Source: an uncultured virus (IMG/VR IMGVR_UViG_3300009826_000018) | Lineage: Duplodnaviria > Heunggongvirae > Uroviricota > Caudoviricetes | Direction: 5' to 3' (one strand) | DNA length: 54,026 nt | IMG/VR virus record: IMGVR_UViG_3300009826_000018 | Span: 62,001 to 116,026 of that record | Shown: in pieces, positions 1-44,858 of the stretch | Layout of the letters: every line of letters starts with the position of its first letter | How positions within the stretch are numbered: position 1 is the first letter of the stretch | Translations under genes and position numbers: made by a program | The notes under the pieces: model-generated | What the model was told of the DNA's origin: nothing | What the model saw: the letters and a program-made list of their open reading frames with translations, nothing else | Database searches by the model: none

Positions 1-3000
1 CCTTCAAACATTATATTTGCTGAATATTCGTCACCTAATTCTGTGTACAAATAATTTGTTGTTACTTCCGGTTTTCTACAAACGAACATTGTTACTTCTC
101 TTTCGTCTTCACCACAAGAATTTTCAACTTTTACGGTAATTGTGAAGTCACCAAACATTGCCCAATCGCTTGGAACACCGGTAATTTCACCTGTTTCAGG
201 ATTCAAACTTAATCCCGGTGGTAAGTCTGTCCATTCTCTCACACCTTTGGTAATTGACCACGTTGCGGGTTTTGTACCAAACGCTTCTAATTGTTGTGAG
301 TTTTCTTCTGCAATAACAAATTCGATATGTGGGGTTATAACGGTTGGTTGAGCACACACAAACATATGAATAGTGTGTTCTACCTCACCACAATAATTTT
401 CTACTTTTACGGTGAACAAGAAGTTACCAAATGTTAATGGTGTCCCACTAACTTCACCTGTAAATTCATCTAACATTAAACCTTCGGGTAATCCATAAAC
501 ATAACCCTCTAATTGTGCCCATTCAGGTAATTCACTATCAACTATTGACCAATAATCGGGTGTTGTACCTTCATATTGAATATTTGCTGAATATTCGTTG
601 TTTAACAAACCATACAAATAATTTGTTGTTACTTCCGGTTTTCTACAAACGAACAATTCTATTTCTTTTTCATCTTCACTACAAGAGTTTTCAACTTTAA
701 CAGTAATTGTGAACTCACCAAACATATTCCAATCAGTTGGAACACCTGTAATTTCACCTGTTTCAGGATTCAAACTTAATCCTGGTGGTAAGTCTGTCCA
801 ACTATTTACACCTTTTGTTATTGTCCATGTACCTTGTGTACCGAAAGATTCCAATTGTTGTGAGTTTTCTTCTGCGATAACAAATTCAACTCCTTCGGTT
901 AATACTTCTGCTTTACCGCAAACGTATATATGTAATCCTATTTCGTGTTCACCACAGTAATTTTCAAGTCTTACTACTACGTCAAAGTCACCAAACTCGG
1001 TTGGTACACCTGTTACCCATCCTGTTTCTTCGTCTAATTCCAAACCTTCCGGTAATTCACCTTCAACGATTGACCAAATTCCGGGTGAACCAAAGAATCT
1101 TAATTCTCTTGGGTGTTCTTCATCCATTACTAATGCCAAACTAGTTGTTTGAACTTCGGGTTTAGCACATATAGAAATATTTATTAATTTTACATCCTCA
1201 CCACAATCATTGACAAATTTTGCTACAAAACTAAATTCACCAAATTCGGTTGGTGTTCCAAATATTACACCTTCGGCGGTAATAAATAAACCGTTAGGTA
1301 AAGAACCTTCGGCGATTGACCAAGTTCCTTCTGAACCTATTACTTCTAATTGAACTTCACTTTCTTCTTCAAGAACAAATTCAATATCTTCGGTTATAAC
1401 GGTTGGTTTTAAACATACAGTAAAATTAACTTCTTTTGTTGCTTCACCACAAGCGTTTTCAACTTGTACGGTGATAGTGAAATCACCCGATTCTGTTGGT
1501 ACGCCACTCATAACACCTGTCTCTTCATCTAATTCCAAACCTTCCGGTAATTCACCTTCAATAACAGTCCATTTTCCTGGTCTGCTACCTGTGAATTGGA
1601 ATTGTTGTATAACGTTATCATCTACTACGTAGAAATTATCTATTTCACCTATAATGTTTGGTAATTGACAAACAAATATTACAACTATTCTTGTTGCTTC
1701 ACCACAACTATTTTCAAGTTTTACTTCAAAATGGAAGTGTCCTGATACAACCGGTGTTCCGCTAACTTCACCTGTTTCGGTATTCAAAGTTAAACCTGTT
1801 GGTAATGCGCCGTTTATAATACTCCATGTTCCTGGTGTACCATCTTGTTCAAATTTTGCTGAACCCGCTTCGTTTAATCTGAAATCCATGTGGTCGTTAG
1901 TGATAATCGGTAATCCACACATAAACATATTGATCACCTGTGTATCTTCACCACAAGGGTTAGTTACTTTTACAGTGAATGTAAAATCACCAAATTCTCT
2001 TGGTCTCCCACTGATTTCACCTGTTAATTCATTCAATCTCAAACCTTCGGGTAATGTACCATCTATAATTTTCCATTCACCTTGTGTTCCGTCATTCGTT
2101 AATTGGAATGATATTCTTCCTTCCATTACAAATTCTAGTTCACTTGCACTTGTAATAGTTGGTGTAGCACACACGGTTATATGCACTTCTTTTGTTGCTA
2201 CGCCGCAATGGTTAGTAAGTTCAACTGTAATAGGGAAGTCACCAAATTCGGTCAATGTTCCGCTGATAACACCTGTATTAGGATTCAATGTGAAATTGTT
2301 TGGTAATGTACCTGCAACAATTTTCCAAGTTCCTGGTGTACCTGTTGATAACAGTTGTTGTTCTGACTGTGTTCCCATTACAAAACCCATATTTTCGGTC
2401 AAAACGTTTGGTAGTCCGCACATAAATATATGTATTGGTTTATATGCTTCACCGCAATAGTTGGTTACTTTTACTATTAAATGGAAGTTACCAAATTCAA
2501 CTGCGATACCACTGATCAAACCTGTTTCAATATCCAATTCCAACCCCACCGGTAGTTCACCCTCATGGATTGACCATGTTCCTGGTGTACCGAAGTGTGT
2601 TAATTGTAGGTTAATTTCATCACCCATAACATAGTCGAAATATCCTGGATTTGTTACTTCCGGTTTTCCGCAAACAAAGATACTAATTTCTTTTTCCGCC
2701 TCACCGCAAGGATTTTTAAGTACCACAGTGAATAAAAATTCACCCATTTCAGTTGCTGTTCCACTAATAACTCCTGATTCACTATCCAATGATAGACCGT
2801 TTGGTAATACACCTTCTGTGATTTCCCAAGTTCCTGGTCTACTTCCTGTGAATTGAAGTTGTTGTGAACTATTTTCGTTTAATATAAAATCAAATTCTTC
2901 GCTTGTAATGTCAGGTAACTTACAGATAAATAGATTTACCTCTTGTGTTGCTTCACCACAAGGATTTGTTATTTGTACAGTGAATTTGAAGTGTCCCCAA

Positions 3001-6000
3001 ACTGTTGGGATACCACTTATTTCACCTGTTTCTTCGTCTAATTCTAAACCTGTTGGTAATGAACTACCGTCAGCAATTGACCACAAACCTTCTGTTCCAA
3101 AGTTTTCCAATTGGATTGAAATTTCATCGTCAAATACGGTTTCAAATGTATTTGGACTTGTAACTACCGGTTTTGCACAGATAAACAAGTCAAATTCTTT
3201 CATATCTTCACCACAAGGGTTTTCTATTTTCACTGTGAAGAAGAAATTACCAAACTCTGTTGGAATACCGCTTATCAAACCTGTTTCGGTGTTTAGTGAT
3301 AATCCGGCTGGTAACAATGAAGGGGTTTCGTCTGAATATGTGATAATACTGTTTTCTACAAGCGACCAAGTTCCTGGTCTGCTTCCTGAAAACAATAATT
3401 GTAATTCGTTATACTCATCCATTACGAAATCTACTTCGGTATCATTCAATATAGCGGGTTTTCCACAAATGAACATATCAATATCTTGGATTGCGTCACC
3501 ACAGGGGTTAGTAACCGACACAGTAAATTTGAAGTTACCAAATACTGTTGGAACACCATAGATTTCACCTGTTTCTTCTTCTAAAAACAATCCGGCTGGT
3601 AATTCACTATCAACTAATGACCATACACCTTCTGTTCCCGAAGATTCTAATTGTGTATAACCTTCTTCACCCATTACAAAATTTGATATACTGTTACCAC
3701 TTGTAACTTCCGGTTTTCCACAAACAAACATATCAATATGTTTAGTATATTCACCGCAAGGATTTTCTATTTTTACATAGAAACTATAATCACCGAATAC
3801 GGTAGGAGTACCGAAAATTTCGCCTGTTTCACCATTCAATTCTAATCCTGCTGGTAACTCACCACACACGATTGTCCAAGTTCCTGGTCTACTTCCTGAG
3901 AACATAAGTTGTTCTGAACTTTCTTCACCCATTACAAACTCCATATACGGGCTACTTACAACCGCAGGTTTTCCACAAATGAACATATCAATATTTTGAA
4001 CTGCTTCACCGCAAGGATTTTCAACTTGAACAGTAAATTTGAAGTTACCAAATACCATTGGGTTTCCATAAACCTCACCTGTTTCAGCGTCTAATACCAA
4101 TCCCATAGGAAGTTCACCCTCTATTACTGACCATACACCTTGTGTTCCGTCAGAAGTGAGTTGTGCTGAACCGTCTTCACCCATTACAAATGACATACTA
4201 CTACCGCTTGTAACACTTGGTTTTCCGCAAGTAAATATAGTAAGTTCTTTTGTAGATTCGCCGCAATGATTTTCTATTTTCACAAAGAAACTAAAATCGC
4301 CAAATTCGGTAGGTGTACCACTAATTTCGCCGGTTGTAGGATTCAATGTTAATCCTGTTGGCAACTCACCACACACGATTGTCCAAGTTCCTGGTCTGCT
4401 TCCTGAGAATGTCATTTGTTCAGAGTGTTGTTCACCCATTACAAATTCCATATCACCACTTGTAACTTCCGGTTTTGCGCATATTTGAATAGAAATTGTT
4501 CTAGCGTCTTCACCACAAGCGTTTTCAATTTTAACGGTTATGGTATATGTACCTGAAACTGTCGGTGTACCACTAATTATTCCTGATTCTCCTTCTAATT
4601 CCAAACCATTAGGTAAATTACCATTCATAATTGTCCACACACCTTGTGTACCCGAAGCAGTTAGTTGTTCTGCACCGTACTCATTCATTACAAAGTTCAA
4701 ATCACTTGTGTTTGTAACAGTTGGTTTGGCGCATACAGTAATATTAACTACTTTTGTATCGTCACCACAAGGGTTAGTTATTTTAACAGTAATTGGGAAT
4801 ACACCATATTCTGAAAGTGTTCCACTGATTACACCTGTTTCACCGTTAAGAGTAAAACCTGTTGGTAATGCACCGTCTATAATTTCCCAAGTTCCTGGTC
4901 TGCTTCCTGAGAACACTAATGTTTGTTCTGATGGTTCACCCATTACAAACCCCATATCACCACTGATGACACTTGGTTTTCCACAAATGAACACGTCTAT
5001 ATCTTGTGTTGCTTCACCACAAGGATTAACAACTTTTACACTAAATTTATAATTACCAAATACGGCTGGTGTACCACTCACAACACCTGTCTCACCATTC
5101 AGTGTCAGACCTTCCGGTAGCGAACCACCTGAAATTGACCAAACACCTTGTGTTCCTGACGAAGTTAGTTGTGCTTCACCTACTTCACCCATTACAAATT
5201 CCATACTACTACCACTTGTAATAGTTGGTTTTGCACAAGTAAATATGGTTATATCTTTTATATCTTCACCGCAAGTATTAGTAATTTTAACAGCAACGTC
5301 AAATATTCCAAATTCAACCGGAGTACCGCTGATCACACCTGTTGCTGTGTTCAGTGATAATCCTGTTGGTAAATTACCTGTTACTGACCAAGTTCCTGGT
5401 CTGCTACCGTCAAACAATAGTTGTTTTGATGCTGCTTCACCCATTACGAACTCCATATCACCACTTGTAACAGTTGGTTTTCCGCAGATAAATATATCCA
5501 ATGTTTGAGTTGCTTCACCACAAGGATTAACAACTTTTACTGTTGCAACAAAGTTACCAAATACGGTAGGAATACCACTAACAAGTCCTGTATCAGCGTT
5601 CAATGTTAGACCTGCTGGTAATTCATCTACTACTGACCAAGTACCTTGTGTTCCGGCTGATGTTAATTGTGCAGAACCTGCTTCACCCATTACGAAACCC
5701 ATACTACTTCCACTTGTAACACTTGGTTTTCCACAAACGAATACGTTTATTTCTTTTGAAGCGTCACCACAAGGGTTAGTTACTTTCGCAGTAAATGCAA
5801 ACTCACCAAATTCGGTAGGTGTTCCTGACACAATACCTGTTTCAGGCTCCATAGTTAATCCGTTAGGTAATGAACCGGCAGTGATTTCCCACATACCTGG
5901 TCTTGTACCTGAATAAACTAATCTTTCCAATCCTACGTTACCCATTACGAACTCCATATCACCGCTTACAACCATTGGTTTTTCGCAAATATGGATAGAT

Positions 6001-9000
6001 ATTGGTTGTGAGTTTTCACCACAAGGGTTAGTTATTTTTATTGTGAAACTATAACTACCTGAAACAACCGGTGTACCATTTACAATACCTGTTTCGGCAT
6101 CCAATGTTAATCCTTCCGGTAATGTTCCGATAATTGACCACAATCCCGCTGTTCCCGAAGACTCTAACTGCGCTGAACCTGCTTCACCTTTTACAAAATT
6201 CATTTCAGCACAACACAAGATTGTTGGTTTTGCACATATATTAATGTTTATTACTTTACTATTTTCACCACAAGCATTTTCAATTTTTGCAGTAAATTCA
6301 AAGTCACCGAATACGGTCGGAGTTCCGATAATAACACCTGTATCAGCGTTGAATGTCAATCCTGTTGGTAATGTACCTTCGATACTCCAAACTCCTGGTC
6401 TACTACCTGAAAACTCTAATTGTTGTACCATAGGATTACCCATTACAAGACCCATATCACCCGTCAAAACGGTTGGTTTAGCACAAATTGCCATAGTTAT
6501 ATTTTTCGTTGCTTCACCACAAGGGTTAGTAATTTTCGCTGTGAAGTTAAATCCACCTGCTACTGTCGGTGTACCACTAATTTCACCTGTATCGGTGTTC
6601 AATGATAAACCTTCCGGTAATGTTCCGCTTGAAATTGACCAAGTTCCTGCTGTTCCCGAAGAAGTTAATATCGCCGAACCGGATTCACCCATTACGAATG
6701 ACATATGATTGTCGCTTGTAACTGTTGGTTTAGAACAAGTATTGATTGTTATATCTTTTACATCCTCACCACAAGGGTTAGTTACTTTTATACTAACAAC
6801 AAACTCACCAAATTCCGCTGTTCTTCCGGTAATTAAACCTTCGTCATTCATTGAAAGACCTGTTGGGAAAGCACCACCATCAAGTGACCAAGTTCCCGGT
6901 CTTGTGCCTGCGAATAACAACTGATGTGAAATTGTATCACCCATTACTATATCCATATCACCACTTATGATTGATGGTTTTGAACAGATATATAATAAGA
7001 TTGTTTTAATTGCTTCACCGCAAGGATTTTTGAATTTCACTGTGAAACTATGTGTTCCTGATACTGTTGGTGTTCCACTAATAACGCCGTCTGCACTTAA
7101 TGACAATCCATTAGGTAACGATCCGTTATCAATTGACCAAGTACCTTCTGTTCCTGTTGCTTCCAACTGAACCGAACCCGCTTCATTCATTACGAAATCA
7201 CCGTGGTCACTTACAATATTAGGTCTTGCACATATTGTTATGTTTATAGTTTTACTTGCTTCACCACAAGGGTTTTTCACTATCAAAATAACGTCAAACT
7301 CGCCAAATTCGGTTGGAGTTCCACTGATAGTTTCATTTTCTGCGCTGAAAACTAAACCTGTTGGTAATGTTCCTTCGATAGACCACTCACCAGGTCTTGT
7401 TCCTGCAAATTGTAATCTATGTGTAGTTGCTTCACCCATTACAAGTGTCATATCGTTAGTTACAACTGATGGTTTTGCACAGATAGAAAGATTGATAGTT
7501 TTGCTAGCGTCACCACAAGAGTTAGTAACTTTCACAACAAAACTGTAATTACCTGATACGGTTGGTGTTCCACTAACCTCACCTGTAACTTCATTCAGAC
7601 TTAAACCTGTTGGTAATGCACCACTTTCGATTGACCAAACACCTTGTGTTCCTGTTTGTTCTAACAGCGAAGAACCTGGTTCGTTTATAACGAAACTCAT
7701 ATCACCGCTCATAATAGCGGGTTTAGAACAAGTGTTCATGTTTATATTTTTGCTTCCAACTCCACAAGGGTTAGTAACTTCTACTGTGAAGTTAAATTCA
7801 CCAAATTCAGGGGTCATACCGCTGATTACACCTGTGTTAGGGTTCAATGCCAATCCCAACGGTAAATTACCTGCTACGATTGCCCAAGTTCCCGGACGAC
7901 TACCTGTGAAACGCAATTGATGTGATACAGGAGTATTTTGTACAAAGTCTAAATCACCTGTTACAACAACCGGTTTTGCACAAACATTAAGGTCCATTGG
8001 TTTGTTTGCTTCACCACAAGGGTTAGTTATTTGAACGGTAAATTTATAACTTCCTGACGCAGTTGTCATTCCACTTATTTCACCGTTAGCACTCAATGTC
8101 AATCCTTCCGGTAACGCACCACTTATGATTGCCCAAGTACCTTCTGTTCCTGTTGCTTCCAATTGGAACGCGAATGGTTCACCAGCCACAAAATCAATAT
8201 TATTACCACTTGTAATAACAGGTTTTGCACAAGAGAACATAGTTATTTCTTTTGTATCCTCACCGCAAGGGTTAGCAACTCTTACTGTAACAGCAAAGTT
8301 ACCAATTTCGGTTGGAGTTCCGCTAACAATACCGTTTGTACTCATAGTAACACCATTCGGGAAACTACCGCTAACGATATTCCAACGACCTGGGCGACTG
8401 CCGCTAAATTCAAGTTGTTTTGACATCGGTACGTTTGCCAAGAACTCTATGTTACTTACAATAACAGTAGGTTCAGCACATACGAATATATTAATACTTT
8501 GAATTGCCTCACCACAAGGATTAACAACTTTTACAGTGATCGCAAAGTTACCCGATTCGGTAGGTACACCGCTGATTAAACCGGTTGAAGGTCTTAAAGT
8601 AACACCGTTTGGTAAATCACCTTCTACTGACCATCTTCCTAATGTACCTGTGTAAGCCAATTGGAATGAAACTTCCTCATCTAATTTAAAGTTTATGTTA
8701 TTAGCACTTGTAATTTGTGGTTTAGCACATACAAATATGTTAAATATTTTTCTTGCAACACCACAAGTGTTTGTCATTCTTATAACAACAGAGAAATCAC
8801 CCGATTCTGTTGCAACACCGCTGATAACGCCGTCAGCACTCAATGTCAAACCAGCAGGTAAAGCACCCGATAATACTACCCAAGTACCCTTTGTTCCTTC
8901 CGATTCTAATTGGTGAGAAACATTATCACCCATTACAAATTCCATATCTTCACTTGTAATAGCAGGTAATCCGCACACATATATAAGCATTTCTTTTGTT

Positions 9001-12000
9001 GCTTCACCACAATCATTTGTAACTTTCACGGTTATATTGAAATCACCGAAAACAGTAGGATTACCACTGATTATACCTGTTGCAGCATCCAATGAAAGAC
9101 CTGCCGGTAGTGTACCACCAACGATTGACCAAGTACCTTGTGTTCCAAATGAAGTTAATTGTTCAGAGTGTTGTTCAGTCATTACAAAGTCGAATTTACC
9201 GCTACTTGTAACTTCCGGTTTAGCACACACGAACATATTTATTTCTTGTTCTTTTTCACCACACTCATTTATTGCTTTAACAGTAAAAGTAAAGTCACCA
9301 AACTCGGTAGCAACTCCGCTTATAACACCTGTTTCGGTGTTCAATTCCAAACCTTCCGGTAATACACCTTCTGAAACTTCCCAAGTTACAGGTTCTGTTC
9401 CAACGAATTGTAATTGAACCGATTTTGCTTCACCCATTACAAATCCCATATCACTTGAACTTGTAATTTCAGGTTTTCCACAAATATCTATTGTTATAGG
9501 TTTATTGACGCTTCCACAAGGATTTGTCATTATAACTGTTATTTTAAATTCACCGAATACGGAAGGTGTTCCACTAATTTCACCTGTTACACTGTTCAAT
9601 GTTAAACCAGCCGGCAAACTACCTTGAACTGACCATACACCTGTTGTGCCTGATGCTTCCAATTGAATAGTTTTTTCTTCACCCATTACGAAATCCATAT
9701 CACCACTCAAAATAGCGGGGAATACGCAAAGTGTAATAACAACGACAACATCTTCGCCGCGTACTTCTACAACACCGTCTTCTATTTCATAACCTGTTTT
9801 TGTTACACTGTATTCGTGTGAACCGTCTGTCAAATGAGTAACATACGTTCCGTCATTATTGTTATTTACGATAAAATCACCAACTTTAACACTTGCATCT
9901 GAAACAGGTGTACCATCTTCCAATTTTATAATAAATGTTGTTTTTTGTGTTTGTTCTGCTTTTACATTAATAACTTTCGTTGCTTCACCACAATAGTTTT
10001 CAACTTTCACTGTTGCACTAAACGAACCGAATTTGGTTGTTGTTCCACTAACAACACCTTTGTTATCCATTTGGATACCCCAAGGGAAGTTACCTTCAAC
10101 AACACTCCATCTTCCCGGTCTGCTACCCGCAAACATAAGTTGTTTTGACATTGGAGTATTTTGTAACACACTAAAATCACCTGTTATGATTTCAGGTTCG
10201 CTACATACGAAAATATTTATGTTTTTACTTGTTTGTCCGCAATCGTTTGTTAATATAAGTTGAACGTTAAAGTTACCTGATTCTGTTGGTTTTCCTGTCA
10301 ATAGACCGTCAGCAGTCAATATCAAACCTTCGGGTAATTCAAATTCACTTGACCAAACACCTTTCGTACCATTAGATTCCAATAAAATGTGAACACCTTC
10401 ATTCAACATTAAATTCATATTTCCGGCGGTAGTGATTTCGGGTTTTCCACAAATTGATACATTAATATCTTTTGTTGCTTCGCTACAATGGTTGGCGACC
10501 TTCAAAGTGAAACTGTAATCACCGAATACTTTCGGAGTTCCACTAATTGTACCGTTTTCGCTATCCAAAGTTAAACCTTTTGGTAATACACCTTCGGAAA
10601 TTGACCAAATTCCTGGTCTACTTCCTTCGTAACGCAGTTCAACTGTTTTTTCTTCGCCCATTACGAAATCCATATCACCACTTCTGATAACAGGTTCAAC
10701 ACAGACAAATATACTCATACACTTTTCTACCTCACCACAAGCGTTTGTGAACTTCAAATTAAATTCAAAATATCCACCGGCAGTTGGAGTTCCGCTGATT
10801 ACACCTGTATTTGGGTCTAAAACTAAACCTGATGGTAAATGACCACCTGTAACTGACCAAACACCCGCTGAACCATGTACTTCATATTGCATTTCAACCG
10901 CTTTACCTCTTACAAATTCAGAGTCACAACCGCTGCAACAAGATATAATGGTTGGTTTCATACAAGCACCCACACCCACTTCTTTAATTGCTTCACCGCA
11001 AGGGTTAGTTACTTTTATTTTAAGGTTGAAATCACCAAACACTCTCGGTGTTCCACTAATAATACCTGTGTCAGCATCTAACGAAAGACCTTTTGGTAGT
11101 TCACCTTCGGCAACCGACCATTTACCTGGTCTTGTTCCCATAAATTGTAATTCGTGTGTCATTGCCTCACCAACTACAACGTTAATGTTTTCAGGAGAAA
11201 CTTCCGGTTTTCCACAAATGTAAACTTTCAAATATTGGAAATCTTCACCACAAGCATTAATCACTCTTATAGTACAGTTGAAGAAACCGAAAATTGTTGG
11301 TGTACCTGTGATAAGACCTTCTTCGTCTAATGATAATCCGCTTGGTAATCTACCTTCGGCAATTGACCAAACTCCGGGATTTCCGTAAGCGGTTAGTTGT
11401 ACTTTTGCTTCTTCACCCATTACAAGTTTTACGTCATCATTACTTGTAATACGTGGTTCAGCACATATTGTTATTTGAATATCTTTTTCTACTTCACCAC
11501 AAGGATTGACCACTTTCAATGTAACGTGGAAATCACCAAATTGTGTTGAAATTCCTGAAAGAACACCTGATTTACCATTCAACGTTACTCCGGTTGGTAA
11601 TTCACCATCTACAACCGACCAAGTTCCGGGACCACTACCTGAAAATTGTAGTTGTTCCATTATTTGTTCGTTATACGGAAGAACAAGATTAGAAGATGTT
11701 GCAATTGTTGGTTTTGCACATACGTACATATTGATTTTTTTAGTCAATTCACCACAAGGGTTAGTTACTTTTACAGTAAAATCATATTTACCGAACTCGG
11801 TGGGTGTTCCACTAATAAGACCATCCGAACCGATTGAAATACCTCTTGGGAAAGTACCCTCAACATACGACCAAACGCCCGGTTTACTTCCAACAAAGGT
11901 TAGTTGTTCAGATATTTCTTCATTCATTATAGATTTAATATCTTTGCTAGAAATTTTACTTGGGGGTTCACACAATTGTACTGCCACATCTACGTCAGAT

Positions 12001-12323
12001 ACGGTTACAGTTACGTTTCCACCTTGAGAAATCATTCCAGGTCTACTAACATTAAATTGATATTCACCCGGAATAACATTCATTGCCTTGTAGGAACCGT
12101 CAAAATGGTTTACTATCTTTATTTTGCTTGATAGAATTGAAATAGTGGCATCCGTTATTGGATTACCATCTAAATCAGATACGTAAAATGTTATTACGAA
12201 ATCTATGTCGTTAATACTTTGAGCAGAATTGGCGACAACAACAGGCGCATTATCGCTCACAACGCGAGAAAGCACACTGTATTTTTGTGTCGCATGACGA
12301 TTAACAGAAAATTTTGATGCCAT
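1..12323 (-). CDS. Giant (>4100 aa, 3' end outside window) tandem Ig-like (He_PIG-type) repeat protein with two PEGA/carboxypeptidase-regulatory-like domains; probable virion fibre or decoration protein
   Basis: ATG at 12323 (MASKFSVNRHATQKY...). Manual translation at the start, around 9700-10000 and at the left edge (...TNYLYTELGDEYSANIMFEG) stays in one frame. About 46 repeats of ~83 aa with consensus QL-x-GSRPG/GTQG-xWSIxxGxLPxGLxLxxxTGxISGTPTxxGxFxFTVKVxNPCGExxKxIxIxVCxKP. Not every codon was checked for stops. Confidence 0.9.
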   Translation of the reverse strand, partial: MASKFSVNRHATQKYSVLSRVVSDNAPVVVANSAQSINDIDFVITFYVSDLDGNPITDATISILSSKIKIVNHFDGSYKAMNVIPGEYQFNVSRPGMISQGGNVTVTVSDVDVAVQLCEPPSKISSKDIKSIMNEEISEQLTFVGSKPGVWSYVEGTFPRGISIGSDGLISGTPTEFGKYDFTVKVTNPCGELTKKINMYVCAKPTIATSSNLVLPYNEQIMEQLQFSGSGPGTWSVVDGELPTGVTLNGKSGVLSGISTQFGDFHVTLKVVNPCGEVEKDIQITICAEPRITSNDDVKLVMGEEAKVQLTAYGNPGVWSIAEGRLPSGLSLDEEGLITGTPTIFGFFNCTIRVINACGEDFQYLKVYICGKPEVSPENINVVVGEAMTHELQFMGTRPGKWSVAEGELPKGLSLDADTGIISGTPRVFGDFNLKIKVTNPCGEAIKEVGVGACMKPTIISCCSGCDSEFVRGKAVEMQYEVHGSAGVWSVTGGHLPSGLVLDPNTGVISGTPTAGGYFEFNLKFTNACGEVEKCMSIFVCVEPVIRSGDMDFVMGEEKTVELRYEGSRPGIWSISEGVLPKGLTLDSENGTISGTPKVFGDYSFTLKVANHCSEATKDINVSICGKPEITTAGNMNLMLNEGVHILLESNGTKGVWSSEFELPEGLILTADGLLTGKPTESGNFNVQLILTNDCGQTSKNINIFVCSEPEIITGDFSVLQNTPMSKQLMFAGSRPGRWSVVEGNFPWGIQMDNKGVVSGTTTKFGSFSATVKVENYCGEATKVINVKAEQTQKTTFIIKLEDGTPVSDASVKVGDFIVNNNNDGTYVTHLTDGSHEYSVTKTGYEIEDGVVEVRGEDVVVVITLCVFPAILSGDMDFVMGEEKTIQLEASGTTGVWSVQGSLPAGLTLNSVTGEISGTPSVFGEFKITVIMTNPCGSVNKPITIDICGKPEITSSSDMGFVMGEAKSVQLQFVGTEPVTWEVSEGVLPEGLELNTETGVISGVATEFGDFTFTVKAINECGEKEQEINMFVCAKPEVTSSGKFDFVMTEQHSEQLTSFGTQGTWSIVGGTLPAGLSLDAATGIISGNPTVFGDFNITVKVTNDCGEATKEMLIYVCGLPAITSEDMEFVMGDNVSHQLESEGTKGTWVVLSGALPAGLTLSADGVISGVATESGDFSVVIRMTNTCGVARKIFNIFVCAKPQITSANNINFKLDEEVSFQLAYTGTLGRWSVEGDLPNGVTLRPSTGLISGVPTESGNFAITVKVVNPCGEAIQSINIFVCAEPTVIVSNIEFLANVPMSKQLEFSGSRPGRWNIVSGSFPNGVTMSTNGIVSGTPTEIGNFAVTVRVANPCGEDTKEITMFSCAKPVITSGNNIDFVAGEPFAFQLEATGTEGTWAIISGALPEGLTLSANGEISGMTTASGSYKFTVQITNPCGEANKPMDLNVCAKPVVVTGDLDFVQNTPVSHQLRFTGSRPGTWAIVAGNLPLGLALNPNTGVISGMTPEFGEFNFTVEVTNPCGVGSKNINMNTCSKPAIMSGDMSFVINEPGSSLLEQTGTQGVWSIESGALPTGLSLNEVTGEVSGTPTVSGNYSFVVKVTNSCGDASKTINLSICAKPSVVTNDMTLVMGEATTHRLQFAGTRPGEWSIEGTLPTGLVFSAENETISGTPTEFGEFDVILIVKNPCGEASKTINITICARPNIVSDHGDFVMNEAGSVQLEATGTEGTWSIDNGSLPNGLSLSADGVISGTPTVSGTHSFTVKFKNPCGEAIKTILLYICSKPSIISGDMDIVMGDTISHQLLFAGTRPGTWSLDGGAFPTGLSMNDEGLITGRTAEFGEFVVSIKVTNPCGEDVKDITINTCSKPTVTSDNHMSFVMGESGSAILTSSGTAGTWSISSGTLPEGLSLNTDTGEISGTPTVAGGFNFTAKITNPCGEATKNITMAICAKPTVLTGDMGLVMGNPMVQQLEFSGSRPGVWSIEGTLPTGLTFNADTGVIIGTPTVFGDFEFTAKIENACGENSKVININICAKPTILCCAEMNFVKGEAGSAQLESSGTAGLWSIIGTLPEGLTLDAETGIVNGTPVVSGSYSFTIKITNPCGENSQPISIHICEKPMVVSGDMEFVMGNVGLERLVYSGTRPGMWEITAGSLPNGLTMEPETGIVSGTPTEFGEFAFTAKVTNPCGDASKEINVFVCGKPSVTSGSSMGFVMGEAGSAQLTSAGTQGTWSVVDELPAGLTLNADTGLVSGIPTVFGNFVATVKVVNPCGEATQTLDIFICGKPTVTSGDMEFVMGEAASKQLLFDGSRPGTWSVTGNLPTGLSLNTATGVISGTPVEFGIFDVAVKITNTCGEDIKDITIFTCAKPTITSGSSMEFVMGEVGEAQLTSSGTQGVWSISGGSLPEGLTLNGETGVVSGTPAVFGNYKFSVKVVNPCGEATQDIDVFICGKPSVISGDMGFVMGEPSEQTLVFSGSRPGTWEIIDGALPTGFTLNGETGVISGTLSEYGVFPITVKITNPCGDDTKVVNITVCAKPTVTNTSDLNFVMNEYGAEQLTASGTQGVWTIMNGNLPNGLELEGESGIISGTPTVSGTYTITVKIENACGEDARTISIQICAKPEVTSGDMEFVMGEQHSEQMTFSGSRPGTWTIVCGELPTGLTLNPTTGEISGTPTEFGDFSFFVKIENHCGESTKELTIFTCGKPSVTSGSSMSFVMGEDGSAQLTSDGTQGVWSVIEGELPMGLVLDAETGEVYGNPMVFGNFKFTVQVENPCGEAVQNIDMFICGKPAVVSSPYMEFVMGEESSEQLMFSGSRPGTWTIVCGELPAGLELNGETGEIFGTPTVFGDYSFYVKIENPCGEYTKHIDMFVCGKPEVTSGNSISNFVMGEEGYTQLESSGTEGVWSLVDSELPAGLFLEEETGEIYGVPTVFGNFKFTVSVTNPCGDAIQDIDMFICGKPAILNDTEVDFVMDEYNELQLLFSGSRPGTWSLVENSIITYSDETPSLLPAGLSLNTETGLISGIPTEFGNFFFTVKIENPCGEDMKEFDLFICAKPVVTSPNTFETVFDDEISIQLENFGTEGLWSIADGSSLPTGLELDEETGEISGIPTVWGHFKFTVQITNPCGEATQEVNLFICKLPDITSEEFDFILNENSSQQLQFTGSRPGTWEITEGVLPNGLSLDSESGVISGTATEMGEFLFTVVLKNPCGEAEKEISIFVCGKPEVTNPGYFDYVMGDEINLQLTHFGTPGTWSIHEGELPVGLELDIETGLISGIAVEFGNFHLIVKVTNYCGEAYKPIHIFMCGLPNVLTENMGFVMGTQSEQQLLSTGTPGTWKIVAGTLPNNFTLNPNTGVISGTLTEFGDFPITVELTNHCGVATKEVHITVCATPTITSASELEFVMEGRISFQLTNDGTQGEWKIIDGTLPEGLRLNELTGEISGRPREFGDFTFTVKVTNPCGEDTQVINMFMCGLPIITNDHMDFRLNEAGSAKFEQDGTPGTWSIINGALPTGLTLNTETGEVSGTPVVSGHFHFEVKLENSCGEATRIVVIFVCQLPNIIGEIDNFYVVDDNVIQQFQFTGSRPGKWTVIEGELPEGLELDEETGVMSGVPTESGDFTITVQVENACGEATKEVNFTVCLKPTVITEDIEFVLEEESEVQLEVIGSEGTWSIAEGSLPNGLFITAEGVIFGTPTEFGEFSFVAKFVNDCGEDVKLINISICAKPEVQTTSLALVMDEEHPRELRFFGSPGIWSIVEGELPEGLELDEETGWVTGVPTEFGDFDVVVRLENYCGEHEIGLHIYVCGKAEVLTEGVEFVIAEENSQQLESFGTQGTWTITKGVNSWTDLPPGLSLNPETGEITGVPTDWNMFGEFTITVKVENSCSEDEKEIELFVCRKPEVTTNYLYGLLNNEYSANIQYEGTTPDYWSIVDSELPEWAQLEGYVYGLPEGLMLDEFTGEVSGTPLTFGNFLFTVKVENYCGEVEHTIHMFVCAQPTVITPHIEFVIAEENSQQLEAFGTKPATWSITKGVREWTDLPPGLSLNPETGEITGVPSDWAMFGDFTITVKVENSCGEDEREVTMFVCRKPEVTTNYLYTELGDEYSANIMFE
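100..11970 (-). repeat. Coding tandem repeat, ~250 bp unit (~46 copies), with ~500 bp A/B superperiod between about 2830 and 8400
   Basis: 'tcaccacaagg'-like NxC(G/S) codons recur about every 250 bp from ~115 to ~11755: 8 units before the second PEGA domain and 38 after it. Confidence 0.9.
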
Positions 12324-41885: not shown

Positions 41886-42995
41886 ATGAGAAGTAGTCTT
41901 AATACGAAGAAAGTTGGTTTTTTTACGGAAGCAAATGATGTTGTGAGTGCTTATTACAAGGATATACGCGACACAATGACATTATTACCCGAAGAAGAAG
42001 TGGCATTGTTCAGAGCATATAAAGAAAATGGTGATGAAAAGGCGCGGATTAAATTAATCGAAGCAAATCAAAAATTTGTGGTTTCTGTTGCCAAAAAATA
42101 CATCAACAATACCAACCAATCAATTTTATCCGACCTAATCAATGAGGGAAACATTGGGTTGATGACCGCATTAGAAAATTTTAATATGGAGAGGGGTTTC
42201 AAATTCATAACATATGCTGTGTGGTATATCAAAAGAGAAATCCAAAACTTCATAATTGATAACAAATTGGTTGCTCAAACAAATTTGCAAAAAACAATAT
42301 TCCATGTTGATAAAATTAAGGAGAAATTCCGAAACATTAATGGAAGGGAAATGGATGTTGATGAATTAATGGAAGAGTTGGAACAACAACACAACGTAAA
42401 AATAATTGATAAAAGTGATTTGTATGTTTTATCCTTTGATTCGATTGACACACCGGCGACACCAAAAACAGAGCAAGACGAATTTTCTCCAACCGAAAGT
42501 GAGTTCAATAATATGTTTTACACACAAAACACCATTATTGACATAATCGATGACGAGGATAATAAAATATTAGCCAAAGAATATTTGACAATATTATTAC
42601 CACGTGAGCGGGAAATCGTTGAATTATATTACGGTATAAATACATTTGCTGAATATACTTTGGATGATATTGCTGATAACTATGGTTTCACTACCGAAAG
42701 AATTAGACAAATCATTAAAAATGCGATTGACATAATGAAAATACGTCATAAAGTTAGTAGAATTGACGAAATAAAACAATATGTAACGCTATTATCAAGA
42801 GTAGAGGTGTATTTATTAAACTTACATCTAATGCAAAAATTTACACCACAGGATATTTCCGAGAGATCGGATTTTACCGCCGAAAGTATTCAACAGGCGT
42901 TGTGTGGTGCGATAGAAATAGTTTATAACTTTTATAAATTTAGATTAAATGAAAATAGATACGAGGTTAAAGTCAAAAATCTTTCAGCGGAGTGA
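41886..42995 (+). CDS. Sigma70-family RNA polymerase sigma factor 1 (extra C-terminal region-4-like module)
   Basis: Region 1.2 YYKDI...EEE, region 2 ANQKFVVSVAKKY...DLINEGNIGLMTA...GFKFITYAVWYI, region 4 LPRERE...TLDDIA...TERIRQI. Confidence 0.92.
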   Translation: MRSSLNTKKVGFFTEANDVVSAYYKDIRDTMTLLPEEEVALFRAYKENGDEKARIKLIEANQKFVVSVAKKYINNTNQSILSDLINEGNIGLMTALENFNMERGFKFITYAVWYIKREIQNFIIDNKLVAQTNLQKTIFHVDKIKEKFRNINGREMDVDELMEELEQQHNVKIIDKSDLYVLSFDSIDTPATPKTEQDEFSPTESEFNNMFYTQNTIIDIIDDEDNKILAKEYLTILLPREREIVELYYGINTFAEYTLDDIADNYGFTTERIRQIIKNAIDIMKIRHKVSRIDEIKQYVTLLSRVEVYLLNLHLMQKFTPQDISERSDFTAESIQQALCGAIEIVYNFYKFRLNENRYEVKVKNLSAE

Positions 42996-43863
42996 CTCAT
43001 TACAAAAATTCTACACCGACATTGCCAAATACCCTATTTTGGGGGTTGATGAGGAAGTAGAACTCTTTCACTCTTATAGAAATGACGGCGACATAAGGGC
43101 TAGGGATAAAATAATCCAAAGCAACCAACGCTTCGTAGTGTCGGTTGCCAAAAAATACGCCAAAACAGAAATCGAATTAATGGATATGATTTCAGAAGGA
43201 AACATTGGGTTGATGAAGGCGGCTGAAAAATTTGATACCACCTATGGATTCAAGTTTATAAGTTATGCAGTACATTGGATATATTCTTACATTTCAACAT
43301 ATTTGAATAAGAGGGAATTAATCAAGAAAAACGTTGATTATCAACTCCGAAAGAAAGTTGAAGAGATAAGGAAAGAACTCAATAAAGAGGGGTGGGATGT
43401 AAATATCAGTACAATAGCATCTATATTAAAGGATAGACATAATATCCACGTAAGCGAAGAAGAGTTATGTGCAATATCCACCATTTCTATTGATATTCCA
43501 ATAGACGACACAGATTATGTTTCCGGTCTAACAGATTTCAATGAGTTTTACTGTTCTCACAATGAGGTTACAGATGCCATTGATGACGACCATAACAAGT
43601 TTCTTGTGGAAACATATTTGAGTTATCTAACAGCCAAAGAACAAGAAGTCATCAAACTTTACTTCGGGATTGATGGTGAAGAAGCGTTAGGAACATTTGC
43701 AATGGTCGCCCAAAGATTGGAAATACCCAATCACCGCGCTGCTGGTCTTTTTCACAGAGGATTACGTAAAATGCAAATAGAATTTCGGAGAACAAAAAAA
43801 CGAAGATCGGATTATTTTAGTAAAAATATATTAAGTGATAGTTATAAATTTTTAAATTCATAA
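42949..43863 (+). CDS. Sigma70-family RNA polymerase sigma factor 2
   Basis: SNQRFVVSVAKKY...DMISEGNIGLMKAAEKFD..GFKFISYAVHWI; region 4 LTAKEQEVIKLYFG. Confidence 0.92.
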   Translation: MKIDTRLKSKIFQRSDSLQKFYTDIAKYPILGVDEEVELFHSYRNDGDIRARDKIIQSNQRFVVSVAKKYAKTEIELMDMISEGNIGLMKAAEKFDTTYGFKFISYAVHWIYSYISTYLNKRELIKKNVDYQLRKKVEEIRKELNKEGWDVNISTIASILKDRHNIHVSEEELCAISTISIDIPIDDTDYVSGLTDFNEFYCSHNEVTDAIDDDHNKFLVETYLSYLTAKEQEVIKLYFGIDGEEALGTFAMVAQRLEIPNHRAAGLFHRGLRKMQIEFRRTKKRRSDYFSKNILSDSYKFLNS

Positions 43864-43868
43864 AACAA

Positions 43869-44858
43869 ATGGAAAATATAAATATGAAAGTCGTTAAAAG
43901 CGACGAGGAAATTTTAGGTAGTGTGAGTGGTGGTGATGTGAACAAAACCGTAAGAAAAGACGTTTTTCAAATTGACCCAAAAACGTTGACGGTGGATGCG
44001 GAACACAATGTTCGTAATTTTACAGACAAGGTTGTTCTCGAACACATTGAATCGTTGGCAGCAAATATTGCTGAAAACGGTGTTTTAACGCCGCTGACGT
44101 GCCGCAGGGAATCTATTGGAAAAGACCCCAACACCGGCGAACCCATTTACAAGTACATTATTGTTGACGGCGAATGTCGCTATCGTGCAACACTATTACT
44201 TGAAAGTAGAGGTACACCTGTTTGCCGAGTTCCTGCAATTTTGGAAAGGTCAACCAACAACGAGGCGAACCGAGTTTTGGATATGTTAAACGCCAATGAG
44301 AGTTTGCGTTTTGCGCCGATTGAACTCGCTGCTGCGTATAATAAGTTCTTGAACTTCGGTTGGACAGAAGAAGAAATTGCCAAAAAATTGGGTAAGAGTT
44401 TAAACCACGTAAAAGAAACGGTTGCATTGTTAGCGCATGACGAAAGTGTTATTGCAGCACTTAAAAGTAACAAAGTTACCGCCAACAATGTGCGCCAACT
44501 TGATAAAAAAATCAAGGAAGAAGGTGTAATGAACGATTACACCCGGAAAAAAGAGGTGAGTGAAAGACTTGAAAAGGCTATCAAACTTGCCGAAACGGAA
44601 GAGGGTGGTGTTGCGAAAAGTGGAAAACTGAATATCACAAAGTTTTTGGGTATCAGTCAAACGGAAAGTGAACGCATTATCAGCGCAATCGAATTAATAA
44701 CCGATACGTTGAGAAACAGGGATTTCACACGGGCAAACCTACTCGACTTGGCGGAAGATTTACGTGCCGGACAATCAATCCAAAACGCTGTCAATCATGT
44801 GTTTGGATTATCACTTATCGAAGATACGGAAGTGGAAGTATCTGCGAATGACGAATAA
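43869..44858 (+). CDS. ParB/Srx-domain protein with HTH
   Basis: NVR...LAANIAENGVLTPL, IVDGECRYRA, GWTEEEIAKKLGKS. Confidence 0.85.
   Translation: MENINMKVVKSDEEILGSVSGGDVNKTVRKDVFQIDPKTLTVDAEHNVRNFTDKVVLEHIESLAANIAENGVLTPLTCRRESIGKDPNTGEPIYKYIIVDGECRYRATLLLESRGTPVCRVPAILERSTNNEANRVLDMLNANESLRFAPIELAAAYNKFLNFGWTEEEIAKKLGKSLNHVKETVALLAHDESVIAALKSNKVTANNVRQLDKKIKEEGVMNDYTRKKEVSERLEKAIKLAETEEGGVAKSGKLNITKFLGISQTESERIISAIELITDTLRNRDFTRANLLDLAEDLRAGQSIQNAVNHVFGLSLIEDTEVEVSANDE

Follow-up and report, generated by a model that had tools for sequence, protein, structure and literature searches.

In the stem of SraP from Staphylococcus aureus, one Ca2+ is bound by Asp573, Lys575, Asp601, Asn602 and Asp645 at 2.2-2.6 Å, and the excerpted report states that Ca2+ stiffens this stem (PMC4047093). 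The partial text of the GhpA preprint describes intramolecular disulfides between nearby domains and credits them with a straight, rigid stem (bioRxiv 10.1101/2024.01.29.577165); disulfides between neighbouring Ig-like repeats are thus already known. In Cpe0147 and Spy0128, an ester and an isopeptide bond, respectively, join the first strand of a domain to its last and are reported to let force bypass the domain (PMC8382745, in extract), and a Mobiluncus adhesin is described as having intradomain cross-links in a chain of 51 repeats (PMC10619420, in extract). Disulfides in tailed-phage virions are documented, in the extracts of both papers, for Milano (PMC10811340) and 7-7-1 (PMC12796354).

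Here we describe a phage gene encoding a chain of He_PIG domains in which a pair of cysteines recurs. The window (the whole stretch of DNA that was analysed, 54,026 nucleotides, G000:C1:62001-116026) holds most of this gene. Our preferred reading, to which we assign a probability of about 0.8, is that the junction Cys of one domain pairs with the turn Cys of the next domain, as the sequence pattern, a predicted structure and the analogy to SraP suggest. The chain would then probably be a He_PIG stalk with a disulfide in place of the calcium clamp and a covalent load path. A literature search that reached a minority of subscription journals and main texts only found no report of such a Cys pair in arrays of He_PIG domains or in phage Ig arrays.

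Layout of the giant gene

The giant He_PIG protein is 5,195 aa long in the genome and is encoded on the minus strand, starting at window position 12323 and open at window base 1. From its N-terminus it consists of a leader, a CarboxypepD_reg-like domain, 8 He_PIG repeats, a second CarboxypepD_reg-like domain, 41 repeats, three more CarboxypepD_reg-like domains and a C-terminal part without a domain match, giving 49 He_PIG repeats and five CarboxypepD_reg-like domains. He_PIG (PF05345) scored 231.5 bits on the first 1,000 aa, above the gathering threshold (cut-off 24). No hydrophobic leader or signal peptide was seen at the N-terminus when judged by eye, and no T9SS sorting domain was among the Pfam matches of the last 1,054 aa. 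The features of the gene in the window are:

1..12323, minus strand: giant He_PIG repeat protein, first 4,107 of 5,195 aa, continuing past window base 1 (whole gene at G000:C1:58736-74323)
11973..12323, minus strand: N-terminal leader of ~40 aa and first CarboxypepD_reg (PEGA-like) domain (PF13620 33.7 bits, cut-off 32.3)
11970..11972, minus strand: junction Cys118 in VQLCEPP, at the end of the PEGA-like domain and the start of repeat 1
9957..11972, minus strand: repeat block 1, He_PIG repeats 1-8, each with an N-terminal junction Cys and an N-x-C turn Cys
10926..10940, minus strand: extra CCSGC in strand A of repeat 5, kept in the relative P0003
9990..9992, minus strand: turn Cys778 (NYCG) of repeat 8, with no junction Cys after it
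9729..9956, minus strand: second CarboxypepD_reg (PEGA-like) domain, without a turn Cys (PF13620 E 9e-4, below cut-off)
9726..9728, minus strand: junction Cys866 in ITLCVFP, at the start of repeat 9
1..9728, minus strand: repeat block 2, from repeat 9 through 46 and into the start of 47, running on to repeat 49 outside the window
6210..6215, minus strand: extra CC in strand A of repeat 23

The first-pass annotation had described two PEGA domains that lack N-x-C-G and end in a junction Cys. The cysteines are as described (Cys118 and Cys866), but the label is better replaced: PF13620 was the best-scoring family for these PEGA-like domains, and PEGA (PF08308) reached 19.4 bits in the C-terminal part, below its cut-off of 20.8 and below CarboxypepD_reg. 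In most successive repeats (window 1-11972, minus strand) the B-C loops alternate between a G-S-R-P-G and a G-T-x-G type, a sequence pattern that suggests duplication of a two-repeat unit. Acidic content climbs from ~10% to 17% toward repeat 45.

Genome, host and neighbouring genes

The giant gene is also present on G001, a viral record of 367,155 bases that carries direct terminal repeats, and a single-protein search of viral contigs found only this 367-kb record. Between the database copy of the protein (P0002) and the protein of the window genome, 1 of the 5,195 residues differs. Capsid Gp23, a tail sheath, a terminase and a B-family polymerase identify the genome as that of a jumbo myophage. 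A Bacteroidota host is likely on sequence grounds: 79 of the 80 loci kept in the comparison place the phage DnaK nearest to this group. No close named phage was found, the best terminase matches being ~25%, and the terminase of one relative is 80% identical. Phage record MT837546 was dropped, as its one repeat lacks the Cys pair and its ORF resembles a bacterial surface protein. The giant protein matched a PHROG tail family (E 2e-19) and, at 28-33% identity, annotated tail proteins, a weak indication of virion placement; we consider it most likely that a Bacteroidota jumbo phage displays the stalk on its virion.

Downstream of the giant gene (L003:7413-18703, minus strand) are genes for a 1,653-aa protein without a Pfam match and a 2,098-aa BspA-type LRR_5 protein, such that LRR_5 surface-type proteins adjoin a phage fibre gene; in the relative, similar genes follow the giant gene in the same order. 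The tail sheath (L003:2069-6016, plus strand) is 1,316 aa long, and its central insert (~545-690) matches several unrelated virion-protein PHROGs. Elsewhere, across L002:14465-19963 (plus strand), L010:8741-9118, and L011:1194-1955 and 7529-9442, the phage carries an NAD salvage cluster (NAMPT-like, NAD synthase and isochorismatase-family genes) together with genes for SiaC, DnaK, a histidine kinase and a response regulator. In the window, two adjacent sigma-70 family genes are followed by a ParB-like gene and DnaJ (41886-44858, plus strand).

Cysteine pattern along the chain

All 49 repeats start with a Cys and have a turn Cys, the latter in an N-x-C motif in 48 repeats and in RSVCC in one. 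The earlier description of two cysteines per repeat thus held for the pair itself and omitted extra cysteines such as CCSGC in repeat 5. These are few: only 10 cysteines in 4,151 repeat residues lie outside the junction/turn pair. A second Cys follows the turn Cys exactly 12 residues on in 47 of the 49 repeats, and the exceptions, repeats 8 and 49 (the latter outside the window), both precede a CarboxypepD_reg-like domain. Repeat 8 keeps NYCG and then reads VINVKAEQ without a junction Cys, at the place the first-pass annotation had given. Conversely, both CarboxypepD_reg-like domains that stand before a repeat end in Cys (2/2), and the other three do not (0/3).

The proposal that a junction Cys is present only where a repeat with a turn Cys comes next proved correct at all 54 domain ends. 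Random placement of the five Cys-less ends would produce this match with a chance of 1/C(54,5) = 3e-7, which is no true p-value because the repeats are duplicates of one another. On this sequence pattern, junctions from a repeat to a PEGA-like domain would stay unclamped. Extra CC motifs are kept across phages, with CCSGC in repeat 5 and a CC turn variant in P0002, P0003 and P0149; those of repeat 5 and of repeat 48 (outside the window) could form bonds to partner proteins.

Strand G ends with the junction Cys, and that residue also opens the next unit, so whether a bond to it is called interdomain or intradomain is partly a matter of definition, and cysteine bookkeeping alone cannot tell the two apart. 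The same bond might be a plain intradomain stabiliser that ties the N-terminus of a domain to its own F-G hairpin, adds little interdomain rigidity and belongs to a duplication unit that begins at the Cys. All 49 units can indeed be cut with both cysteines inside one unit. We regard this reading as possible, at somewhat less than even odds; it is compatible with our preferred reading in that it invokes the same bond and differs only in mechanical consequence.

Predicted structure and the SraP calcium site

An AlphaFold2 model of repeats 1-3, built from an alignment of 42 rows from the window, reached a pLDDT of 96 and a pTM of 0.74. Its strands form a seven-strand Ig-like sandwich, as in solved He_PIG members. 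In such a sandwich the F-G hairpin lies at the domain's N-terminal end, adjoining the preceding junction. In the model, turn Cys81 occupies the hairpin that connects strands 69-79 and 82-93, and the second of these strands has Cys93 at its far end. Twelve residues in one extended strand span ~4 nm, and Cys81 and Cys93 would therefore be unable to pair. A bond between the two cysteines 12 residues apart in one domain is ruled out in the model, in which they occupy opposite ends of strand G. The structure prediction proposed by the first-pass annotation as a check thus separates the turn Cys from the Cys 12 residues on, and the interdomain bond is supported by the topology of the fold rather than by a modelled bond.

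One repeat superimposed on a Bacteroides fragilis He_PIG domain (4OGZ) with a Z of 14.1 and an rmsd of 1.2 Å over 84 residues, and on SraP (4M03) with a Z of 11.8, the latter also giving a profile match at E 4e-10. Counting along sequence alignments, the junction Cys falls between SraP Asp573 and Lys575, and the Asn of N-x-C aligns with Asp645 of SraP's following domain. The SraP ligands are missing from the phage repeats at the positions scored: Asp occurs at 0 of 49 positions one before the junction Cys and at 0 of 49 positions two before the turn Cys, and DN in 0 of 48 B-C loops. That both cysteines occupy a compact metal site whose metal ligands are gone is the strongest structural argument for the bond, although one drawn from aligned positions.

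The model also bears on the intradomain stabiliser. It assigns the junction Cys to strand G of the preceding domain, which leaves the linker without free residues, and the equivalent site in SraP is reported to stiffen the stem (PMC4047093, in extract); both points argue against a bond of purely local effect, while the tri-domain pTM of just 0.74 is in its favor. The cysteines might instead cross-link neighbouring chains of a parallel bundle, with junction n bonded to turn n+1 of another chain in a multi-stranded fibre. In-register packing would satisfy the same bookkeeping, three phage proteins keep the extra CC motifs, and the GhpA stem is described as heptameric (bioRxiv 10.1101/2024.01.29.577165, in extract). 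However, the SraP site joins both positions within one chain (PMC4047093) and the GhpA disulfides are intramolecular (bioRxiv 10.1101/2024.01.29.577165) in the excerpted accounts, and we consider such a bundle very improbable.

Under our preferred reading, in which the bond links consecutive domains of one chain, the giant protein would be a stalk in which 49 He_PIG (SraP-type cadherin-like) domains are strung like beads. The junction Cys that ends strand G of one domain would bond to the F-G hairpin Cys of the domain after it, with the disulfide occupying SraP's Ca2+ site. Such a bond would hold a zero-length linker at two points, presumably stiffening it to some extent; by analogy to SraP and GhpA, a rigid rod is plausible. 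The load path would run along strand G, through the disulfide and into the next strand G, leaving strands A-F unloaded, if Cpe0147 and Spy0128 are a guide. Tension would then be borne by ~13 of the ~85 residues per repeat, and the rest of the domain would be bypassed. If this bypass holds, the bond would be a redox-cleavable counterpart of the isopeptide and ester locks.

Cellular He_PIG homologues

Homologues were taken as the best 120 of 437 proteins, of which 118 remained besides the two phage proteins. Among these 118, 27 had at least 40 Cys; three were moved to the Cys-poor set, having their Cys off the repeat positions. This left a Cys-rich set of 24 cellular proteins with 657 anchored repeats, the upstream anchor being one residue before a conserved Trp. 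Agreement of the turn Cys was 643/657 repeats for the junction before it and 570/657 for the one after it. Where the two junctions differ, 90 repeats follow the preceding one and 13 the following one (24 cellular proteins plus P0002 and P0003). The 14 discordant cellular repeats comprise four with an insertion after strand A, two with an insertion in the F-G loop, two with a longer strand A, one in P0113, and five in P0078 that are real exceptions with a turn Cys and no junction Cys. The 24 proteins form one single-linkage cluster and are for this reason not independent. In a second set, 10 of 120 new proteins had at least 3 turn Cys (238 repeats); agreement was 222/238 with the preceding versus 209/238 with the following junction, and informative repeats divided 21 versus 8.

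Measured from the anchor, the turn Cys is at +20 or +22 in the cellular proteins and at +18 in the phage. The cellular sites, 2-4 residues later, are analogous rather than identical. Among the 94 Cys-poor proteins, 2,783 of 2,833 repeats have none of the three Cys; most He_PIG arrays examined lack such cysteines, which implies that the fold does not need the bond. Named members among the cellular homologues are Verrucomicrobia, and most Cys-rich proteins have N-termini that look like signal peptides by eye. Taken with the topology and the SraP site, co-occurrence in these homologues lends good support to the staple from junction Cys(n) to turn Cys(n+1) that the first-pass annotation had proposed, its wording as a bond between domains being partly definitional.

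The junction rule is not followed by P0202 and P0153. In P0202 every repeat carries a single Cys, placed either where strand A ends or in the turn (+18) of the repeat after it, and the two placements alternate 10 times. We read this alternation as a bond that is strictly interdomain and uses the same turn position, which would represent a second stapling scheme in the family. The C-terminus of P0202 is presumably T9SS-like (its database matches are weak).

A second phage and its split repeat

The relative P0003 is 5,796 aa long and 63% identical to the giant protein, with a nearly identical leader. A positional test found a Cys at the preceding junction for 57 of its 58 repeats; a long insertion breaks up the remaining repeat, whose junction Cys lies 335 residues upstream. 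Among the proteins compared, five domains interrupted by insertions have the junction Cys and strand A on the upstream side of the insert and the turn Cys on the downstream side, as would be expected were the bond an intradomain stabiliser. In P0003, the second C-terminal-type PEGA-like domain twice precedes a repeat and ends in Cys both times (2/2); the equivalent domain in P0002 and in the relative's next ORF has no repeat after it and no Cys. Junctions without Pro at +3 tend to precede turns without Asn (4 with both and 3 with one, among 102 junctions in three proteins), a small hint from sequence that junction and turn segments touch. A propeller-like repeat block lies inside one He_PIG repeat, after strand A (P0003 residues ~5200-5500; L030:2-5827).

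The relative's giant gene stops within a repeat, after the junction Cys, strand A and strand B. A new ORF begins 48 bases on, starts at strand C and carries the turn Cys, the arrangement being the same in both records examined:

L030:5700-8664 (G002) and L032:1440-1800 (G003): the relative's split repeat, with a stop, an AT-rich spacer and a new start in the B-C loop

Since the junction Cys and the turn Cys are on different ORFs here, any bond between them would join two chains.

A profile search of G001 gave 51 repeat matches, 49 in the giant gene and two elsewhere:

L010:7097-7384, minus strand: 95-aa circularly permuted single He_PIG repeat
L011:3266-3952, minus strand: 229-aa ORF with a repeat lacking strand A, then a domain without assignment

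The 95-aa ORF encodes strands B-G with the turn Cys, then the junction Cys, strand A and an acidic tail. It scored 29.5 bits on He_PIG (PF05345, cut-off 24) and is 41-48% identical to repeats of the giant protein. Against its best-scoring repeat, third codon positions were more diverged than second positions (34 versus 56 of 80). A homologue, P0128, is 76% identical and shares the permutation. In the monomer model, B-G are folded and strand A is unpaired, and a two-copy complex prediction (residues 1-84) scored 0.26 against a mark of 0.42 in a run whose controls did not fold. The 229-aa ORF was considered as a conserved fibre cap, which was not supported: only the protein itself was found among proteins of 125-401 aa. 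Codons upstream of this ORF resemble the start of a repeat that has decayed.

The permuted and split repeats suggest strand complementation between chains. It is conceivable, if doubtful, that the 95-aa repeat polymerises head to tail by donating strand A and forming the same disulfide, with the split repeat rejoined likewise. Were this true, the product would be a chaperone-free, covalent, pilus-like filament, and together with the 49-bond chain it would constitute a modular, air-cured, force-bypassing fibre system with a disulfide for the calcium clamp. As natural strand-complementation pairs, permuted and split repeats could serve as covalent, reversible protein connectors.

Oxidation of the chain

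The chain would be made reduced in the cytoplasm and would oxidise without a phage enzyme, probably after lysis. The search for a dedicated oxidase prompted by the first-pass annotation came back empty for the five families searched: the complete genome G001 gave no thiol oxidase match to PF04777, PF01323, PF02600, PF00462 or PF07884. These cover DsbA, DsbB, glutaredoxin, VKOR and Erv1, of which the Erv1 negative is weak, its control having matched 0 of 14 genomes. With no dedicated oxidase found, passive oxidation after lysis is the default. With a cytoplasm-made protein that has no known oxidase, the question of how phage virion disulfides arise could be tested on a small soluble tri-domain.

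The two cysteines might instead bind a metal such as Zn at the old calcium site and stay reduced. Synthesis in a reducing cytoplasm and the failure to find an oxidase gene in G001 among the families searched are consistent with this, as is the metal bound at the SraP site (PMC4047093, in extract). We nevertheless judge it a highly unlikely reading, given that no His, Asp or Glu is among the invariant or near-invariant columns, that the acidic ligands of SraP are gone, and that similar Cys pairs occur in apparently secreted proteins.

G001 encodes one CPPC thioredoxin, and a phage ribonucleotide reductase is present. Thioredoxin is a reductant of ribonucleotide reductase, and the phage thioredoxin is more simply explained as the reductant of the phage's own enzyme. 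This bears on the suggestion of a redox-switching fibre, limp while reduced in the cell or in anoxic niches and stiff when oxidised outside. Cytoplasmic synthesis does imply a change from reduced to oxidised at some point, and disulfides of Milano are reported to need reduction for tail contraction in vitro (PMC10811340, in extract). Against this stand the simpler role of the lone thioredoxin and the lack of DsbA, DsbB, VKOR, glutaredoxin or Erv1 matches in G001 (weak for Erv1). We found no support for a redox-switchable fibre and consider it unlikely.

Comparison with known systems

GhpA was absent among the sequence and fold matches listed for the phage repeats, and other disulfide-linked filaments were absent among the listed fold matches. 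GhpA of Aureispira resembles the phage chain in having ~50 Ig-like repeats in one chain, but it is a T9SS-secreted heptamer, and the bond cited in the partial text spans 152 residues versus ~70-85 in the phage (bioRxiv 10.1101/2024.01.29.577165). T9SS filaments of the GhpA/SprB type carry a signal peptide and a sorting domain, whereas the phage protein has neither, judging its leader by eye and its C-terminus by Pfam. Milano and 7-7-1 are described in the extracts as cross-linked between subunits of capsid, sheath and baseplate; here, the Cys pair recurs within one chain, and the phage's own capsid (4 Cys in 667 aa) and sheath (1.06% Cys) are not Cys-rich. The bonds of Cpe0147 and Spy0128 are autocatalytic, buried, redox-insensitive and set in another Ig subtype (PMC8382745, in extract), and a bypass in the phage would be comparable in effect only. 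Donor-strand-complemented pilins combine an incomplete Ig fold with a terminal strand that cannot fold back; in the 95-aa protein, strands B-G come before the junction Cys and strand A, and strand A is unpaired in the monomer model, making it at most a candidate for this group. The B. fragilis alpha-galactosidase (4OGZ, 4NZJ) shares the He_PIG fold of the phage repeats and has no turn Cys in the aligned part.

A close parallel is SraP CDHL-1/2 (4M00, 4M02, 4M03), which has a homologous fold and, like the phage protein, a tandem stalk; in the excerpted report its clamp links the residues at the junction to the next domain's F-G turn and makes the stem stiffer (PMC4047093). SraP uses one Ca2+ per junction with Asp/Asn ligands in two modules (PMC4047093, in extract), whereas the phage has a Cys pair in 49 repeats. 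What is new here is the conserved permuted one-repeat gene and the relative's repeat split across two genes. The comparison points to a third way of bracing an SraP-type junction, with a disulfide for calcium, in a common and little-studied domain family.
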